A stretch of 64,000 bases of DNA, from positions 177,528-241,527 of the forward strand of contig JAGVXL010000001.1 in the NCBI GenBank assembly GCA_018303805.1, given 5' to 3'. Positions within the stretch are counted from its first letter, which is position 1; each line of letters opens with the position of its first letter. The stretch is from Candidatus Pacearchaeota archaeon (GTDB lineage Archaea > Nanobdellota > Nanobdellia > Pacearchaeales > DTIR01). The notes beneath the pieces were generated by a model. That model saw nothing but the letters and a program-made list of their open reading frames with translations. It searched no databases and was not told where the DNA came from. Made by a program: the position numbers and the translations under genes. This document shows positions 3,523 to 55,614 of this stretch, piece by piece.

Positions 3523-6318
3523 ATGTATAACTTCAAGGAAGTTGAAGGGCAAGCAAGGGAAATTTGGGAAAAGCATGAAAAAGAGATTGAAAAATCTGTT
3601 CAGGAAAGAAGGGGAAGGCTATTTTCTTTTCTAGAGGGGCCCCCAACCGCCAATGCCCCCCCTGGCCTGCACCATCTTGAACTTAGAACCTATAAAGATT
3701 TGATATGCAAGTTTAAGTTTATGCAGGGCTTTTCTGTTCCAAGGAAAGGCGGATGGGACTGCCATGGATTGCCTGTAGAAGTACAGATTGAAAAAAAACT
3801 CAATCTAAACTCCAAAAAAGATATTGAAAAGCATGGCGTTGAGAAATTTATCAAGGAATGCAGGGAAAGTGTTTTTTCTTATATAGAAGAGTGGGAAAAA
3901 TCAACACAAGAACTAAACTACTGGATTGATTTGGAAAATCCATACAGAACTCTCGACAATGATTATACTGAAAGTGTCTGGTGGAGTCTCAAAGAATTAT
4001 ACAATAAGAAACTTTTATACGAAGACAAGAAAGTTGTGCCTTTTTGCCCAAGATGCGAAACACCATTGTCAAGCCACGAAGTGGCACAGGGTTATAAAAA
4101 ATTAAAGGAGGAAACAATTGTGGCCAAATTTAAGCTGGAATCAGGGGAATATATGCTGGCTTGGACAACAACTCCCTGGACTTTGCCCTCAAATTTGGCT
4201 CTGGCTGTCAATCAAAATATAGATTATGCTGTTGTTGAAAAAGATGGAAGAAAATACATTTTAGCCAAAGAACTTGTTAAAAACTTCTTTTCAAAGGCAA
4301 AGATAATTAAAACATTTAAGGGCGAGGATTTGCTTGGGAAGAAATATGAGCCGCTTCTTCCATATTACAATAATCTGAAAAATTCATTTAAGATAATAGA
4401 AGGAGATTTTGTAGAATTGGCAGAAGGCACAGGCATTGTTCATATGGCTCCTGCTTTTGGAGAAGTTGATTTTGAAGCATGCAGGAAGAATGGAATTGAT
4501 TTTGTAAACCCGGTTAATACCAACGGAAAGTTCAGTCATGAGATTCCTGAACTGGATGGCACTTTTATCAAGGCAGCTGATGCGAAGATAACTGAAAAAC
4601 TGGAAAAAGAAGGGAAATTATTCACGAAAATTTCCTATGAACATGATTATCCTTATTGCTGGAGATGCGAGTCTCCTTTGATGTATTATGCAATCAGGTC
4701 GTGGTTTATCAGAGTTTCAAAGGTTAAGGAAGATATGATAAGGTTGAATAAAAAAATTAATTGGGTTCCGGACTATATCCAAGATGGCAGATTTGGAGAT
4801 TGGCTGGAAAATATAAAAGACTGGGCATTGTCAAGAAATAAATTCTGGGGAACTCCATTGCCTGTTTGGAGATGTGAATGCGGGAATGAAATTATTATAG
4901 GAAGTATTGAAGAATTAAAGAAGAATTCTGTAAAGAAACTGGCAGAAAAGGAGATTGATTTACACAAGCCATGGATAGAGAATGTAAAGCTTAAATGCAA
5001 ATGCAGTAAGGAAATGGCAAGGGTTTCAGAAGTTATTGACTGCTGGTATGATTCTGGATGCGCCAGTTTTGCACAATTTCATTATCCCTTTGAGAACAAG
5101 GAATATTTCAAGAAAAGGTATCCTTATGATTTCATTGCAGAGGGGATTGACCAGACACGGGGATGGTTCTACACTCTGCATGCTATTGGAACAATCCTCT
5201 TTGGCAAAGAGGCATACAAAAATGTAATTTGTGCCGGGCATATTGTTGATGAAAATGGCGAGAAAATGTCTAAAAGCAAAGGGAATATAATCCCCCAAAG
5301 AGAGATATTTGATAATGTGGGAGTTGATGCAACAAGGCTGCAATTCTGTACAAGTGATACAGGCAACCAAAAAAGATTCTCGGCTAATCTGGTTAAGGAG
5401 AGTGTTCTGCCATTCCTGACCATATTAATTAATGCGAATAAATATTGCTCTGAATCAGAGAATGGGAAGGAAACCCAAAAAATAGAAGATAAATGGATTT
5501 TATCTAGATTAAATTCAACTATTAATAATGCAACCTCTTTCCTGGAAAAATTTGATATTAATAATGCTTATGCAGAAATATCTGGATTTGTTGTTAACGA
5601 TTTATCCAGGGGGTATATTAAGATGACAAGAGAGAGAAAAACCAAGCCAATATTAAAGGAAGTTCTGATGAAAATTGTGCTGATTTTAGCTCCTTTTGCT
5701 CCCTATATAAGTGAGTATATCTATTCCCAATTCAGCAAAAATTCCGTGCATTTGTCAAACTGGCCTAAAGTTGACAAGAAAAAAATTGACAAGAAACTTG
5801 AGCAGGGTATGGCTATTGCACAGGAGATTATAGAGAGAATACTCTCGGAAAGAGCAAAACCAGGGGTAGGAATTAGGTGGCCTCTTGCCAAGGCAATAAT
5901 CCATACAAAAGAGGAAAATACAAAAATCTTAATGAAAATGCAAGAGATAATCAAGCTGCAGGGAAATATCAAGGAGATAAAAATAAAAAAATCAAGAGAG
6001 GAGAAAGTTGAACTCGACATAAAAATAACTCCGGAACTGGAGGCAGAGGGCTTTTCAAGGGAGATATGCAGAAGAGTGCAGGAAGCAAGGAAAAAATTAG
6101 GCATGCAAAAAGGGCAGAAGATTGATATTCTAGTAAAATCTGATTCAGAACTCCAGAAAATGCTGCAAAAGAATGAAGAATTCATAAAAGAAAGGGTGAA
6201 TGCCTCAAGATTGAAATTTTCAGCAGAAGAAACTCCAGAAGAATACAAATTTTCAGCAGAAGAGGAGATTAGGGGCAGGAAAATAGAAATACATTTCAGT
6301 ATAACTAAAAAAGAGTGA
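3523..6318 (+). CDS. ileS: isoleucyl-tRNA synthetase
   Basis: Class I signature GPPTANAPPGLHH, GWDCHGLPVE, the editing-domain region and KMSKSKGN. At 931 aa it is short for IleRS. Confidence 0.9.
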   Translation: MYNFKEVEGQAREIWEKHEKEIEKSVQERRGRLFSFLEGPPTANAPPGLHHLELRTYKDLICKFKFMQGFSVPRKGGWDCHGLPVEVQIEKKLNLNSKKDIEKHGVEKFIKECRESVFSYIEEWEKSTQELNYWIDLENPYRTLDNDYTESVWWSLKELYNKKLLYEDKKVVPFCPRCETPLSSHEVAQGYKKLKEETIVAKFKLESGEYMLAWTTTPWTLPSNLALAVNQNIDYAVVEKDGRKYILAKELVKNFFSKAKIIKTFKGEDLLGKKYEPLLPYYNNLKNSFKIIEGDFVELAEGTGIVHMAPAFGEVDFEACRKNGIDFVNPVNTNGKFSHEIPELDGTFIKAADAKITEKLEKEGKLFTKISYEHDYPYCWRCESPLMYYAIRSWFIRVSKVKEDMIRLNKKINWVPDYIQDGRFGDWLENIKDWALSRNKFWGTPLPVWRCECGNEIIIGSIEELKKNSVKKLAEKEIDLHKPWIENVKLKCKCSKEMARVSEVIDCWYDSGCASFAQFHYPFENKEYFKKRYPYDFIAEGIDQTRGWFYTLHAIGTILFGKEAYKNVICAGHIVDENGEKMSKSKGNIIPQREIFDNVGVDATRLQFCTSDTGNQKRFSANLVKESVLPFLTILINANKYCSESENGKETQKIEDKWILSRLNSTINNATSFLEKFDINNAYAEISGFVVNDLSRGYIKMTRERKTKPILKEVLMKIVLILAPFAPYISEYIYSQFSKNSVHLSNWPKVDKKKIDKKLEQGMAIAQEIIERILSERAKPGVGIRWPLAKAIIHTKEENTKILMKMQEIIKLQGNIKEIKIKKSREEKVELDIKITPELEAEGFSREICRRVQEARKKLGMQKGQKIDILVKSDSELQKMLQKNEEFIKERVNASRLKFSAEETPEEYKFSAEEEIRGRKIEIHFSITKKE

Positions 6319-10486: not shown

Positions 10487-12373
10487 ATGAGCAATAAATC
10501 TGAGTATACTGCAGAGCAAATAAAAGTTTTGGATGGGTTAGATGGAGTCCGCCGTCGTCCGAGTATGTATATCGGCTCCACAGGCAAAGAAGGCCTGCAT
10601 CATTTGGTTTATGAAGTAGTAGACAATTCTGTTGATGAGGCACTAGCTGGAACATGCACCCTGATTCTTGTTACTGTAAATAAAGATGGAAGCGTGACTG
10701 TTGAGGATAACGGAAGGGGTATTCCTGTTGAGAAACATGCCCTCGGCAAATCTGCACTTGAAGTGGTTATGACAAAGCTGCATGCTGGAGGAAAATTTGA
10801 TCATAAGGCATATCTTATTTCTGGTGGATTACACGGTGTTGGTGTTTCTGTGGTTAATGCATTATCAAGAGAGATGACAGTTCAGGTTAGAAGAGATGGG
10901 AAGATTTACGAGCAAAAATACAAGAGGGGCAAGCCGGCAACAGAAGTGAAAGTTGTTGGGAAATCAGATAAAATAGGAACAACAGTAACATTTGTGCCTG
11001 ATGATGAGATATTCTCCGTATTGCAGTTTGATTTTTCAGTTCTTGTAAACAGAATGCGCGAGCTTGCATTTCTTAACCCTGGATTGAAGATTATCCTAAA
11101 AGATGAGATTAAGCAAAAAGAGGAGGAATTTCTGTCTATTGGGGGGTTAGTCGAGTTTGTAAAATGGCTAAATAAGTCAAAAGAGGTATTGCATAAGCCG
11201 ATTTATTTCAAAAAACAGATGGACAGCACGATTGTGGAGGTTGCTGTCCAGTACAATAATTCTTATCTTGACAACATTTTTGGGTTTGTAAACACAATCA
11301 ATACGGTTGAGGGCGGCACCCATATAATCGGATTCAAAACTGCATTAACAAGAGTGATTAATAATTATGCGCAAAAGAACAAGATAATCAAAGGGGAGAC
11401 AATAACGGGCGATGACTCTAGAGAAGGATTAACAGCCATCATAAATATAAGGATAAAAGAGCCGCAATTTGAAGGGCAGACAAAAACAAAACTGGGAAAT
11501 TCTGAAGTAAAGGGCTTTGTTGACTCTATCGTTACATTATTTTTATCCCAGTTTTTTGAAGAAAATCCAACAATAGCGAAAAAAATTTCAGAAAAAGTTG
11601 CTCAAGCTTCTAAAGCAAGAGAGGCAGCAAAAAAAGCCCGCGATCTTGTCAGAAGAAAAAATGCTTTTGGCTTGTCTGGATTGCCGGGAAAATTGGCAGA
11701 CTGCTCATCTAATAAATTAGAAGAAACAGAATTATTCATTGTTGAGGGCCAGTCAGCAGGAGGCTCTTCAAAAATGGCTAGAAACAAGGAATTTCAGGCA
11801 ATACTTCCCTTGAAAGGAAAAATCCTGAATGTTGAAAAAGCCCAGCCTATAAAAGTTCTAAGCAATGAGGAAATTGCTAATCTGATAACAGCAATCGGAA
11901 CAGGAGTCGGAGAAGAATTTAATCTTGAGAAATTGAGATACGGGAAAATTATAATTATGACAGATGCAGATGTTGACGGGCAGCATATCAAGACATTATT
12001 ACTGACTTTTTTTTACAGATACATGCTGCAGCTTATAGAAAACGGGAATGTTTTTGTTGCTGTTCCTCCTTTGTATAAAATAAGAAAGCACAAAGACCAT
12101 TATGTTTATTCTGACAAGGGGCTAAAATTAGCCCTGAATAAACTTGGGCAGGGAAAAAATGTTAATGTCCAGAGATTCAAGGGATTAGGAGAGATGAATC
12201 CGCAGCAACTGTGGGAAACAACAATGAATCCTTCAAGCAGGACACTAAAAAAAGTTGCAGTGGAAGATGCTGTTGAAGCGGATGAAACCATCTCTATATT
12301 AATGGGGGATGATGTTGCCCCAAGAAAACAGTTCATAGAAGAGCATGCCAAGGAGGCGAATTTAGATTTGTAA
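10487..12373 (+). CDS. gyrB: DNA gyrase subunit B
   Basis: YTAEQIKVLDGLDGVRRRPSMYIGST, GLHHLVYEVVDNSVDEA, TOPRIM EGQSAGGS and PLKGKILNVE. Confidence 0.95.
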   Translation: MSNKSEYTAEQIKVLDGLDGVRRRPSMYIGSTGKEGLHHLVYEVVDNSVDEALAGTCTLILVTVNKDGSVTVEDNGRGIPVEKHALGKSALEVVMTKLHAGGKFDHKAYLISGGLHGVGVSVVNALSREMTVQVRRDGKIYEQKYKRGKPATEVKVVGKSDKIGTTVTFVPDDEIFSVLQFDFSVLVNRMRELAFLNPGLKIILKDEIKQKEEEFLSIGGLVEFVKWLNKSKEVLHKPIYFKKQMDSTIVEVAVQYNNSYLDNIFGFVNTINTVEGGTHIIGFKTALTRVINNYAQKNKIIKGETITGDDSREGLTAIINIRIKEPQFEGQTKTKLGNSEVKGFVDSIVTLFLSQFFEENPTIAKKISEKVAQASKAREAAKKARDLVRRKNAFGLSGLPGKLADCSSNKLEETELFIVEGQSAGGSSKMARNKEFQAILPLKGKILNVEKAQPIKVLSNEEIANLITAIGTGVGEEFNLEKLRYGKIIIMTDADVDGQHIKTLLLTFFYRYMLQLIENGNVFVAVPPLYKIRKHKDHYVYSDKGLKLALNKLGQGKNVNVQRFKGLGEMNPQQLWETTMNPSSRTLKKVAVEDAVEADETISILMGDDVAPRKQFIEEHAKEANLDL

Positions 12374-27940: not shown

Positions 27941-27945
27941 AGCCA

Positions 27946-27970
27946 TGCGCCAGCCGGGACTCGAACCCGG
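27946..27970 (-). tRNA. 3' portion (T-arm + 3' acceptor strand + discriminator) of an interrupted tRNA ('tRNA-X')
   Basis: CCGGG-UUCGAGU-CCCGG-CUGGCGC-A is a perfect T-arm with a canonical T-loop. The acceptor strand pairs 7/7 with GCGCUAG at 29126..29120. Confidence 0.7.
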
Positions 27971-27980
27971 ATAGCATAAA

Positions 27981-28051
27981 TGCAGCTTGCGGGGATTGAA
28001 CCCGCAGCTCGAGCTTGGGAAGCTCGCATTTTACCATTAAACTAAAGCTGC
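27981..28051 (-). tRNA. tRNA-Gly (anticodon CCC), 71 nt, CCA not encoded
   Basis: Hand fold: GCAGCUU-UA-GUUU-AAUGGUA-AAAU-G-CGAGC-UUCCCAA-GCUCG-AGCU-GCGGG-UUCAAUC-CCCGC-AAGCUGC-A. All four stems pair. Confidence 0.85.
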
Positions 28052-29061
28052 GTTCTAAAAGGGAGGGATTCTTTAAAATTTGTTATCGCTCCCTTCAATT
28101 CTTTCTTAGAGGGAATATCACCATTCTTTATAAAATATTTATATCTTTCTATATTCTTAGGATTCGAACTTCCTATTAATTTAAAGAAGCTATGCAGTTC
28201 ATTTTGATTTTGTATCCTTACATTAAAAGAGTATCTTTTAAGAAATCCTGATTTATTTGTACTTTTTGATGGAGTAAAATTAATTTTCTTTAATAAGCAT
28301 ATTATATTATGGCTAATAATTTTTGAGTTTGTCTGAAATTCAATTATTGCTCTATTATATCTTTTCTGTTTTCTGTAAATTCCGCCATCAGTATCTAATA
28401 AACCTCTTAACGCTCCATAAATAAATTCTTTTTTTTCAGAAATCCATGAAGGTAGATGAGCACCATTCTTTATTTTATTCCCTACAGTCAGGCTATTATT
28501 TTTTAAAAATTTAATAAGCTCTGAAGAGTAGCAATCAAGAATTATTGTATTTTTATTGGTATAACTAATAAAAATTTTAGAATCAATGCCAAAAAGTTTC
28601 TTTATTTGTTCAGAGATATAATCTAAATGATTTTTTTCGTAAGGAAATTCGCTGGTGATAGTTAACTCTCCTTCTTCTAAATGACCATCACCTAATATAA
28701 CACCTAATAATTCTGCAAGTTCTTCACTTTTTTCAGGTATTTTTATTTTCTTTTTATTTTTGCCCCCCGCAGATTTTTGTCCCCAGTTTGCAGGAAGAAT
28801 TTTTTCTACCCATTTTGATTGGATAGTTTCCCATTCTTCAAATGGATAGACCTTAAGAAGAGAATAAGCAATTTTATAAGGAATTGTAGACCTCTCTTTT
28901 TGCCATTCTACTCTTAAAGTATACTCGCTAAGATTTATACTATCTGCCAGGGCTTTCCATGTCAGTCCGCTGTTCTTCTTTATTTTTCTCACAAATAATT
29001 TTTGGAATCCTTTCTTGAATTTAACCCTATTATCGATTATACACTCCCCCCTCTTTCTCAT
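28042..29061 (-). CDS. LAGLIDADG homing endonuclease (two-motif, monomeric type) with an N-terminal HTH-like region
   Basis: Motif 1 is LLGVILGDGHL and motif 2 is LRGLLDTDGGIY. The ORF ends in TAG, and its last 10 nt overlap the 5' acceptor strand of tRNA-Gly. Confidence 0.85.
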   Translation of the reverse strand: MRKRGECIIDNRVKFKKGFQKLFVRKIKKNSGLTWKALADSINLSEYTLRVEWQKERSTIPYKIAYSLLKVYPFEEWETIQSKWVEKILPANWGQKSAGGKNKKKIKIPEKSEELAELLGVILGDGHLEEGELTITSEFPYEKNHLDYISEQIKKLFGIDSKIFISYTNKNTIILDCYSSELIKFLKNNSLTVGNKIKNGAHLPSWISEKKEFIYGALRGLLDTDGGIYRKQKRYNRAIIEFQTNSKIISHNIICLLKKINFTPSKSTNKSGFLKRYSFNVRIQNQNELHSFFKLIGSSNPKNIERYKYFIKNGDIPSKKELKGAITNFKESLPFRTQL

Positions 29062-29101
29062 TTATCCTATAGAGCAAACCACTATATAAATATTTCTTTT
29101 T

Positions 29102-29126
29102 TTCTTAGCCATTGGACCACTAGCGC
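29102..29126 (-). tRNA. 5' portion (acceptor strand + D-arm) of the interrupted tRNA ('tRNA-X')
   Basis: GCGCUAG-UG-GUCC-AAUGGCUA-AGA with U8, A14, G18G19 and A21 in place. The D-arm closely resembles that of tRNA-Val in this window (GUCC-AGUGGUUA-AGAC). Confidence 0.6.
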
Positions 29127-30751: not shown

Positions 30752-31363
30752 TTATTGCAACAATTCAGGCTCGACATCCTCTTCTTCTGATTTGTAGTCT
30801 ATAACAGAGAAGACATCATATTTCTTCAGCTTTTCTCTGCCTCCAAGATATGATAGGTCTATGATGAATGCAACACCAACAACATTCCCTCCTAACCTTT
30901 CAACTAATTTGCACGCTGCCTCTGCTGTCCCACCAGTAGCTAGGAGATCGTCTGCAATCAAAACATTTTGTCCTTTTTTAATTCCATCTTCATGCATTTC
31001 AAAGGCATCGATGCTATATTCTGTTTGGAATTCCTGCTTTATTGTTTTGTAGGGAAGTTTTCCAGGCTTTCTTAAAGGGACAAAGCTGCAGTACATCTCA
31101 TGAGCAAGAATGGAGCCGAAAATAAATCCCCTCGACTCTGCTGCTACGACAGCATCAATCCTTTTGTCCTTAAAATGTTCTTCTATTGTTAATAAAACAT
31201 AACGCCTTGTGAAAGGGTCTTGCAGCAATGGTGTTATATCCCGAAACATAATTCCCTTTTTTGGAAAGTGAGGAATAGTCCTTATTCTCTTTTTTATGTC
31301 TTGGATGTTCATGTTTATATTCAAATAGGATGTATTTAAAAAATTTTCCTGAATGTCTCGCAT
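30752..31363 (-). CDS. apt: adenine phosphoribosyltransferase
   Basis: FPKKGIMFRDITPLL, ESRGFIFG, and the PRPP loop VLIADDLLATGGTA. The true start may be the internal MNIQDIK. Confidence 0.85.
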   Translation of the reverse strand: MRDIQENFLNTSYLNINMNIQDIKKRIRTIPHFPKKGIMFRDITPLLQDPFTRRYVLLTIEEHFKDKRIDAVVAAESRGFIFGSILAHEMYCSFVPLRKPGKLPYKTIKQEFQTEYSIDAFEMHEDGIKKGQNVLIADDLLATGGTAEAACKLVERLGGNVVGVAFIIDLSYLGGREKLKKYDVFSVIDYKSEEEDVEPELLQ

Positions 31364-31410
31364 TTGGATTTGTGATTGCTATACTAAATTTTAGCAAATC
31401 AAAATGCTGT

Positions 31411-31466
31411 TCGGAGTTGCGCTCTGATTATTGATATCCTAATGTTAGCAGAGCGAAACTCCTCGA
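31411..31466 (-). repeat. 56-nt conserved hairpin element immediately 3' of tRNA-Val (copy A)
   Basis: 53/56 identical to 55029..55084. On the reverse strand GGAGUUUCGCUCUG pairs with CAGAGCGCAACUCC (13/14) around a 22-nt loop. The element begins at the nucleotide after the discriminator base. Confidence 0.8.
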
Positions 31467-31583
31467 TGAGCCCGCTCGGGTTCGAACCGAGGATCTCCAC
31501 CGCTCTCAATCTTTTTCTCTCCAAGGTCTCTTCCTAAGAGAGCTTTTGTGAGGGTAGCGTCTTAACCACTGGACTACGGGCTC
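31467..31583 (-). tRNA. tRNA-Val (anticodon CAC) with a 44-nt intron at 37/38 (31546..31503)
   Basis: GAGCCCG-UA-GUCC-AGUGGUUA-AGAC-G-CUACC-CUCACA[44 nt]C-GGUGG-AGAUC-CUCGG-UUCGAAC-CCGAG-CGGGCUC-A. CUCA (32-35) pairs with UGAG near the intron's 3' end, which puts both splice sites in 3-nt bulges. Confidence 0.8.
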
Positions 31584-54989: not shown

Positions 54990-55028
54990 TTGTTTTTTCT
55001 GTATAAATCTTTAAAACAAGAATAATTC

Positions 55029-55084
55029 TCGGAGTTGCGCTCTGGTTATTGATATCCTGATGTTAGCAGAGCGAAACCCCTCGA
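55029..55084 (-). repeat. 56-nt conserved hairpin element (copy B), immediately 3' of a tRNA-like fragment
   Basis: 53/56 identical to 31411..31466. The A-to-G change in the 5' arm keeps pairing as G-U. Confidence 0.8.
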
Positions 55085-55130
55085 TGGACCTAGCACGATT
55101 TGAACACGCGAATCTGGCTTTACTCGCCAG
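55085..55130 (-). pseudogene. orphan tRNA 3' fragment (anticodon-arm-like + T-arm + 3' acceptor strand)
   Basis: CUGGC-GAGUAAA-GCCAG-AUUC-GCGUG-UUCAAAU-CGUGC-UAGGUCC-A. The T-loop is canonical, but the 7-nt 'anticodon' loop has A at position 33. No matching 5' acceptor strand (GGRYYUR) exists in the 250 nt upstream. Confidence 0.55.
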
Positions 55131-55614
55131 CCTCTTCTGCAGCAGGTTCCTCTTCTGCCTCGTCTGCAGGGGTTGCAAGCTCCATTATTTCAGTCTGCTC
55201 AACATCTTCAAGAGTGCCTTCTTCAGGCTGCGGCAATTGCTCTTTAGCTGGCTCTGCCTTCAAAATTTCAGGAATAACTGACCTCTTTTCTTTCTCATTT
55301 TTGGGCTTTTCTTTTTCCTGCTTCATTTCAACTATTTCTTCCTTTACTTCAACAGGTTTTTTCACAGCAGTTTCTTCTAGCCTTTTTGGCATCGGTCTTT
55401 TGACAGTGATTGGCAGGATGCTCGCATAAAACTCTATTTCTGCGATCTTTAAAGGGTCGTAGTTGATGATTTCAAGCTCATCCTTAGTTATCTTCAGAAG
55501 TATCGGGGCATTCATGGATACCTGCAAAGCCCTTGCTCCAAGAATTCTTGCAATCTCATATTTGGTAAACCTGCTTTCCACTTCCCTTCTTTGCTTTTCA
55601 GTTACCTGTATCAT
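55120..55614 (-). CDS. rpoK: DNA-directed RNA polymerase subunit K (Rpo6) with a roughly 90-aa acidic C-terminal extension
   Basis: The core is [26 protein letters not shown]...[10 protein letters not shown]....LPITVKR. The start is set at MIQVTEK (55614). The stop codon lies inside the tRNA-like fragment. Confidence 0.8.

Follow-up and report, generated by a model that had tools for sequence, protein, structure and literature searches.

A 56-nt hairpin inserted at the 3′ ends of two tRNA genes in a Pacearchaeota genome, a candidate miniature mobile element

Introduction

Prokaryotic MITEs and palindromic repeats, such as the SM-type MITEs of Sulfolobus, the Correia elements of Neisseria and the Rickettsia palindromic elements, share several properties with the hairpin described here, which is short, non-coding and built of inverted repeats, is present or absent at orthologous sites, and occurs in near-identical copies with unrelated flanks. 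It differs from them in that it is only 56 nt long, was seen in two copies, is not accompanied by a target-site duplication (TSD), has no cognate insertion sequence in the approximately 80 kb of DNA that were read, and lies exactly at a tRNA 3′ boundary instead of a short generic target. Hairpins moved by HUH/Y1 enzymes, that is, the IS200/IS605-derived PATEs and the REP sequences with RAYT, form another group for comparison, the RAYT/REP systems being known from bacteria. Like these, the present element is a hairpin with a mismatch, lacks a TSD and is located 3′ of ...YCA(T), but it consists of one hairpin, not of a distinct left and a right one, and no TnpA, TnpB or RAYT gene was found in the approximately 80 kb; a target motif is not definable from two sites, and membership in this group is not claimed.

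Genes of tRNAs serve as “safe” targets in compact genomes for archaeal integrative elements of the SSV/pNOB8 type as well as for the Dictyostelium TRE and the yeast Ty3 elements, and the tRNA loci studied here are hot spots of change. The SSV/pNOB8-type elements, however, recombine inside the 3′ part of the tRNA gene and duplicate it, which the hairpin does not, while TRE and Ty3 are long coding retroelements inserted tens of bases from the tRNA, whereas the hairpin is a 56-nt non-coding sequence exactly at the RNase Z site. Dicistronic genes of a tRNA and a C/D box sRNA are known from Nanoarchaeum equitans and plants, and the fragments derived from tRNA 3′-trailers are called tRF-1. The hairpin is similar to both in that an RNA of about 56 nt directly after the tRNA would be freed by tRNase Z, but unlike the dicistronic sRNAs it has no C/D boxes, matches no Rfam family and is not conserved in relatives. 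For the Thermoproteales, a review covers transposing archaeal BHB tRNA introns (PMC4090602); tRNA genes that are disrupted or split have been reported too (PMC3293823, PMC3218864). These introns are likewise near-identical short inserts at different tRNA genes, and presence or absence of a tRNA-Val intron is seen in the clade studied here; the hairpin nevertheless differs, as it follows position 73, beyond the mature tRNA, and has no bulge-helix-bulge at its borders.

Results

Two near-identical hairpins follow tRNA discriminator bases

The window, that is, the whole 64-kb stretch of DNA that was analysed, comes from a DPANN archaeon and carries archaeal housekeeping genes (NDK, APRT, ValRS, eRF1, Rrp4/41/42 with rpoK, PAC2, POR, gyrase and topoisomerase I). 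Its closest named relatives are Candidatus Pacearchaeota/Woesearchaeota MAGs, and identical contigs, including a 269-kb ENA contig, come from groundwater metagenomes. Among the repeat families of the window, only one (D6) shows high identity, and it consists of the following pair:

31411..31466, minus strand: hairpin copy A, 5′-TCGAGGAGTTTCGCTCTG-(22-nt loop)-CAGAGCGCAACTCCGA-3′ on the minus strand; 93.8 bits with model R1
55029..55084, minus strand: hairpin copy B, 53/56 identical to copy A; 93.0 bits with model R1

Pairwise alignment and pattern search reproduced the identity of 53/56 in the same orientation given in the preliminary description, and a comparable match was obtained in 0 of 100 shuffles. 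Both copies open with TCGAGG on the minus strand, one base 3′ of a tRNA discriminator A, as had been claimed, and the 5′ boundary CA/TCGAGG is the same at both sites. Beyond the two ends of the repeat the sites show no likeness except for the common ...CA of the tRNA 3′ ends, and the alignment thus agreed with the earlier statement that the tRNA parts are not similar to each other. A larger segmental duplication, against which the same description had warned, was rejected because the copies have unrelated flanks.

On the tRNA strand, the element folds into a stem of 13 pairs with one U-C mismatch and a 22-nt loop, so that of the stem of about 14 bp and the 22-nt loop proposed before, the loop was retained while the stem had to be corrected for its internal mismatch. 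The arms GGAGTTTCGCTCTG and CAGAGCGCAACTCC, complementary at 13/14 positions, sit 4 nt and 2 nt from the element ends, and in this respect the 56-nt non-coding sequence has the inverted-repeat structure expected of a MITE. Fold energies on the tRNA strand were −19.2 and −20.1 kcal/mol (z = −3.4 and −3.8). Copy B differs from copy A by one A>G change in an arm and two T>C changes in the loop, that is, the loop (20/22 identical) and the arms (27/28) are about equally conserved between the copies. Folding of the tRNA strand also bore out that the arm substitution preserves pairing as G-U; on the opposite strand the same change produces a C-A mismatch, and for this reason copy B folds less well on that strand than on the tRNA strand.

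Copy A was unchanged in seven same-species contigs from several samples, in which the tRNA-Val–hairpin region is invariant, and the contigs bearing the element include the JGI contigs L003 (3300002105) and L009 (3300009031). Copy B was found in the same-species contigs L029 and L031 as well. Altogether, two copies were detected in approximately 80 kb (the window with 8.6 kb added on its left and 7.6 kb on its right side), the added flanks containing no further tRNA and no hairpin copy. The further copies envisaged earlier for related genomes were not detected either, since model R1 revealed no extra or diverged copy in 224 kb of the window and its relatives.

Copy A lies between tRNA-Val(CAC) and the APRT promoter-like box

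The region of copy A includes two further features:

31467..31583, minus strand: tRNA-Val(CAC), interrupted 3′ of its anticodon by a 44-nt intron; Rfam RF00005, 49.4 bits; ARAGORN -i
31393..31410, minus strand: approximately 12–18 extra bases, ACAGCATTTTGATTTGCT, recognised in alignments to L025, L037 and L038; boundary uncertain

The assignment of the site A tRNA to tRNA-Val(CAC) was upheld by both Rfam and ARAGORN with introns allowed, while plain ARAGORN (no introns) missed this tRNA at 31467–31583. Its discriminator A (31467) adjoins copy A directly. Orthologues of this tRNA were found immediately upstream of the APRT gene in three relatives, namely L025 (NCBI GCA_053534775.1; APRT 87% identical to that of the window), L037 (84%) and L038 (87%), where the junction reads ...GGGTCCA/TTCAAAAAATTTATATATAATCACAAGC, ...GGGCCCA/CTCGCTTTAGAAAATTTTAAATATAG and ...GGGCCCA/TTTAGAAAATTTTAAAAATA, respectively. 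The hairpin is absent in all three, and a promoter-like A/T-rich APRT box, AAAATTT(T)A.ATA, begins 3–10 nt after the tRNA-Val discriminator. In the window the same box (AAAATTTAGTATAGCAATCACAAAT) is reached only after the 56-nt hairpin and approximately 12–18 more bases. Judging by the alignments, these extra bases would be either part of the insertion or diverged trailer. The inserted length amounts to about 66–74 nt at site A versus about 57 nt at site B, insertion A exceeding insertion B by about 10 nt.

Several observations were made on the neighbouring sequences. The APRT ORF obtained mechanically (30752–31363, minus strand, 203 aa) is probably 17 residues too long, the NCBI protein and most APRT homologues beginning at an internal ATG (~31312, 186 aa); with this start the spacer from the hairpin to the gene is about 100 nt. 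Directly 3′ of copy A, positions 31356–31408 (minus strand) gave a weak match to model R1 (19.5 bits, E ~0.01) and make a small hairpin of their own (GATTTGCTA ... TAGCAATC) around the TATA-like box of APRT; this match is probably due to chance. The 44-nt intron of tRNA-Val is present in the window (31500–31545) and at the L025 locus (1833–1949) and absent at the loci of L037 (1738–1813) and L038 (966–1038), which are relatives of similar distance, indicating that tRNA introns are gained or lost in this clade. A likeness too short to judge exists between the outer helix of the intron (GCUCUC/GAGAGC) and the inner one of the hairpin (CGCUCUG/CAGAGCG).

Copy B follows the 3′ part of a tRNA-Lys(UUU)

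At site B, the hairpin is surrounded by the following features:

55120..55614, minus strand: rpoK (RNA polymerase subunit K/Rpb6, 164 aa), Pfam PF01192; its stop codon overlaps the tRNA-Lys remnant
55085..55121, minus strand: 3′ part of tRNA-Lys(UUU), 30/38 identical to the 3′ part of the L030 tRNA-Lys(UUU)
54990..55028, minus strand: original tRNA-Lys trailer or spacer as far as the stop codon of PAC2, a convergent gene; 25/37 identical to L030:10700–10733, the trailer found directly after tRNA-Lys in that relative

The 35–37 nt upstream of copy B contain GCGTG TTCAAAT CGTGC TAGGTCC A, representing a T-arm, the 3′ strand of an acceptor stem and a discriminator, and Rfam gave no tRNA match at this fragment. 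It had been described as the 3′ fragment of an unrelated orphan tRNA; the fragment is indeed a 3′ part, but its origin could be traced through relative L030 (NCBI GCA_043799715.1, a 353-kb contig), which contains a complete tRNA-Lys(UUU) at 10735–10810 (Rfam, 68.6 bits) convergent to a PAC2 gene 84% identical to that of the window. The remnant runs from about U36–A38 via the 3′ strand of the anticodon stem, the variable loop, the T-arm and the acceptor to the discriminator, while the 5′ part is absent, and a matching 5′ half of tRNA-Lys was not found in the approximately 80 kb. A “tRNA-Lys with a 1212-nt intron”, proposed by ARAGORN at low threshold with its 5′ half inside the Rrp42 gene, was rejected as its acceptor does not pair.

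The tRNA-Lys homology begins exactly at the TAA stop codon (55122–55120) of rpoK, the last gene of the exosome (Rrp4/41/42) operon. The acidic C-terminal tail of RpoK is common to the homologues P0121–P0136, the genes of which do not adjoin a tRNA. Consequently, the end of the ORF is native, and the possibility that the tRNA fragment represents a read-through or artefactual extension of rpoK was rejected. Compared with L030, pairing in the remnant is kept only through G-U pairs, with a tandem G-U/U-G in the T-stem; on this comparison the changes look more like decay than selection, and the fragment was considered a probable pseudogene remnant, a split tRNA-Lys being the less likely alternative. 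Besides this, the CTGGC sequence in the tail of rpoK pairs with the retained 3′ strand of the anticodon stem, GCCAG, and within 55085–55135 (minus strand) a pseudo anticodon stem-loop, CTGGC GAGTAAA GCCAG, is formed with the rpoK stop codon in its loop, which may be a chance structure, a breakpoint microhomology or a functional one.

That the hairpin serves the expression of a fragmented tRNA, site B being the 3′ half of a split (trans-spliced) tRNA-Lys stabilised or marked by it, appears highly improbable. Such a gene would need a 5′ half that carries the acceptor GGACCTA and a trailer complementary to ...GAAGAGGCTGGCGAG. The 3′ part can be folded, the remnant begins in the anticodon loop and the substitutions relative to L030 retain pairing of the T-stem and the anticodon stem via G-U; moreover, Nanoarchaeum and Staphylothermus have split tRNAs, tRNA-Lys among them (PMC3218864), and Pacearchaeales are reported to lack tRNAs for reasons that are unexplained (bioRxiv 10.64898/2026.05.13.725050). 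However, copy A follows an ordinary complete tRNA-Val, the approximately 80 kb contain no 5′ half, the fragment lacks its own promoter and begins at the rpoK stop codon, its tandem G-U/U-G pairs look like decay, and the known split tRNAs use leader–trailer pairing and a BHB, not a 3′ hairpin.

The orthologous sites are empty in relatives

Alignment of the window with L030 revealed a single, clean 57-nt gap, which opens behind ...GGTCCA(T) and is flanked by homologous stretches, and the hairpin is absent from L030. Together with the tRNA-Val loci of L025, L037 and L038, the orthologous sites were therefore empty in all relatives that keep the tRNAs (4/4), a presence/absence polymorphism of the kind known from MITEs. 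The TSD sought as a sign of transposition was not found, as no host bases are duplicated relative to the empty sites in L030, L025, L037 and L038, and in this the element departs from classical MITEs; the alignments allow two insertion points one base apart (A^T or AT^).

While the two copies are 95% identical, the window and L030 agree in only 79% of the tRNA part, 68% of the spacer, 78% of the PAC2 DNA and about 50% of the PAC2 third codon positions. Similarity between the copies far exceeds that between the orthologous flanks, thus the copies separated after the species split, and such a young common origin fits a gain in this lineage rather than independent precise losses in four relatives, although the relatives may, on these alignments, have lost the palindrome precisely. 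The equal conservation of loop and arms is also what would be expected of a recent copy rather than of long-term selection on the stem. Only four T-arm/acceptor 3′ ends exist in the window, and the probability that two independent random insertions hit such ends is of the order of 1e-9. The feature is real and not a product of chance, a lineage-specific insertion at two tRNA 3′ ends and, as judged from these sequence comparisons, a recent one at the tRNA 3′ boundary.

One copy could also be original and the other a one-off templated repair patch, placed at a DNA break by a tRNA 3′ end, with neither mobility nor function. The presence of two copies only, the lack of a TSD and of a transposase and the unequal lengths of the inserts (~57 vs. 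~66–74 nt) would suit this explanation. Both sites are empty in relatives, however, so two events at the same position relative to the tRNA are needed, and the recurrence of the 5′ boundary is unlikely for untargeted repair; we regard a repair patch as very unlikely.

Gene order around the hairpins

The 23.6 kb between the direct repeats (31467–55028) is core housekeeping DNA syntenic with L025 and L030, and the NDK–tRNA-Val–APRT adjacency is ancestral. On this ground, an integrated element or island bounded by the repeats was rejected. A tRNA att site was rejected as well, because the repeat starts after the discriminator, no tRNA sequence lies inside it and the tRNA parts differ.

In the relatives, the surroundings of site B were found to vary. 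L028 (an 87% relative) has a different gene after rpoK (L028:2026–2059), a TFS-like gene precedes tRNA-Lys in L030 (L030:10700–11175), and in L035 (97% PAC2; 1778–1923) and L039 (75%; 4690–5067) PAC2 faces a Toprim-like ORF with no tRNA between them. The partners downstream of PAC2 and rpoK among the 75–97% relatives thus comprise rpoK, the TFS-like gene, the Toprim-like ORF and an ORF starting with MGDNAFN, and the breakpoints (54990 and 55120 in the window) are located exactly at stop codons or inside the tRNA. As far as these alignments tell, members of the clade differ by a shuffled gene order at this point, one of the breakpoints lying in the anticodon loop of tRNA-Lys.

Another tRNA gene of the window (27945–29126, minus strand) is apparently interrupted by a cassette. 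Its 5′ fragment, GCGCTAG TG GTCC AATGGCTA AGA (29126 to ~29102), is preceded by a TATA-like box about 30 nt upstream, and the acceptor of the 3′ fragment, CCGGG TTCGAGT CCCGG CTGGCGC A (27970–27946), is complementary to the 5′ fragment; both resemble an archaeal tRNA-Gly without anticodon arm. A LAGLIDADG homing-endonuclease-like ORF (28042–29061, 339 aa), the only mobile-type gene seen, and a complete tRNA-Gly(CCC) (27981–28051) lie between the fragments. From its sequence, this locus looks like a resident tRNA gene whose middle was replaced by a homing-endonuclease cassette that brought a tRNA-Gly along.

The 3′ ends of tRNAs are classical integration sites of archaeal integrative elements (cf. 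PMC3293823, PMC3218864), and the hairpin copies could accordingly be att-like leftovers of integrative elements or plasmids targeting tRNA genes, or mark rearrangement sites. The breaks of synteny after rpoK (L028), at the PAC2 stop codon (L035, L039) and inside the tRNA-Lys anticodon loop speak for such an origin, as does the disruption of a second tRNA gene of the window by the LAGLIDADG cassette. Nevertheless, this origin seems decidedly unlikely to us, as the repeat starts 3′ of the tRNA and, in contrast to tRNA att sites, contains none of its sequence, the repeats enclose core housekeeping DNA that is contiguous in relatives, no integrase was found in the approximately 80 kb, and the breakpoints do not match the hairpin, both flanks of each site being collinear with a relative.

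Searches for known elements and RNA families

Scanning of genome and metagenome contig collections with the hairpin pattern gave no match, the metagenome collection evidently being without this species and the genome collection without the source genome; a pattern tolerant of transitions found one chance match in the same collections, in a GC-rich bacterium (L024). Three viral scans yielded nothing or one chance match in a coding region, BLAST against plasmids and phages only chance matches of 21–26 nt, and Rfam, at gathering as well as permissive thresholds, no family for the hairpin.

Candidate classes were examined one by one. Neither a C (RUGAUGA) nor a D (CUGA) box is present on the tRNA strand and no snoRNA/sRNA family of Rfam matched, thus a C/D box sRNA was rejected; an H/ACA sRNA was rejected on reading of the sequence, Rfam giving nothing here either. 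The orientation of RYYYAAC/GTTRRRY is wrong for an integron attC. An archaeal BHB intron was likewise rejected, since the insert follows position 73 and the UCGA and GA beside the stem do not allow a central helix of 4 bp to be built with the end of the acceptor. Concerning the IS200/IS605 and REP groups, the hairpin has a U-C mismatch and no TSD, and the target common to the two sites is only ...YCA(T) (n = 2). The two subterminal hairpins of a PATE or the GTAG-type head and clustered inverted pairs of REP/BIME were not seen in the element, which is a single hairpin in isolated copies, and no Y1/HUH gene was found in the approximately 80 kb.

The hairpin in the tRNA trailer

T-rich tracts lie 3′ of the hairpin at both sites (TTTTGATTTG at site A, TTATTCTTGTTTT at site B), beginning 8–10 nt past the stem; this distance and the 22-nt loop were the terminator-like features considered, and a terminator scan gave only a trivial plus-strand site. 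In archaea a T-tract suffices for termination and a hairpin is not needed. The processing or termination signal suggested in the preliminary description gained no support as a conserved signal, because the relatives do without the hairpin, while the position between tRNA and T-rich tract is compatible with its other suggestion, a small RNA that would derive from the trailer.

A functional 3′-trailer module acquired in this lineage, copied between tRNA trailers and kept by selection, for example as a stop or insulator, an aid to tRNase Z or a small-RNA precursor, is an unlikely but arguable explanation. At both sites the hairpin has the tRNA on one side and a T-rich tract on the other, its fold is better on the tRNA strand, where alone the arm substitution gives a G-U pair, and at site A it separates the tRNA from the promoter of the next gene; conservation of the loop to the same degree as the stem is explicable by a sequence-specific RNA or a protein-binding site. 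Against selection stand the four relatives without hairpin at the same tRNAs, the lack of a hairpin after tRNA-Gly(CCC) of the window and the fragment that follows it, and the T5 directly 3′ of tRNA-Lys in L030, which would be enough for termination by a T-tract. In addition, a single G-U is no covariation, and two near-identical copies do not permit a covariation analysis; the hairpin of site B follows an apparently dead tRNA fragment, and no Rfam family matches.

Discussion

A MITE-like, miniature non-coding mobile hairpin at the tRNA 3′ boundary, which rides in the 3′ trailer and is known in two copies, is the explanation we favour, and on the present sequence comparisons we give it about an even chance. 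The earlier suggestion of a mobile palindrome that targets tRNA 3′ ends is thus partly substantiated: insertion in this lineage follows from the four empty relatives and the identity of the copies, while targeting of the tRNA end is deduced from two sites. According to the proposed mechanism, the element would have entered two unrelated tRNA genes, tRNA-Val(CAC) and tRNA-Lys(UUU), at base one or two beyond the discriminator, and some property of the 3′ end of these genes (T-arm/acceptor, ...YCA^T; n = 2) may have served for recognition of the target. As it is located upstream of a T-rich termination tract, it would be transcribed within the 3′ trailer of the pre-tRNA and presumably cut off by tRNase Z. 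The tRNA would then remain unharmed, so that an element could land safely at this boundary in a genome that has hardly any intergenic space. No gene of a transposase, integrase or HUH nuclease was found in the approximately 80 kb, and the mobilising enzyme would be encoded outside this region.

It is conceivable, though we think it rather unlikely, that the element stands for a new class of ultra-small hairpins in DPANN, which integrate exactly at the tRNA 3′ processing site by recognising the gene end or the tRNA and not a DNA word, cause no duplication and are discarded as trailer. The tRNA-Lys cut in its anticodon loop and the tRNA-Gly split by a cassette would hint at a shared mechanism of tRNA-directed mobility.

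Should the copy number stay at two, the hairpin is a lineage-specific curiosity of minor importance. Should the target rule apply throughout the genome, no smaller element that inserts at the tRNA 3′ end with single-base specificity would be known, and the hairpin would show that selfish DNA can persist in spacer-poor genomes of ~0.6 Mb by hiding in the discarded part of a tRNA transcript. The rule would also provide a handle on a nuclease or recombinase that reads tRNA gene ends, and would bear on the origin of disrupted and split tRNA genes in DPANN archaea.
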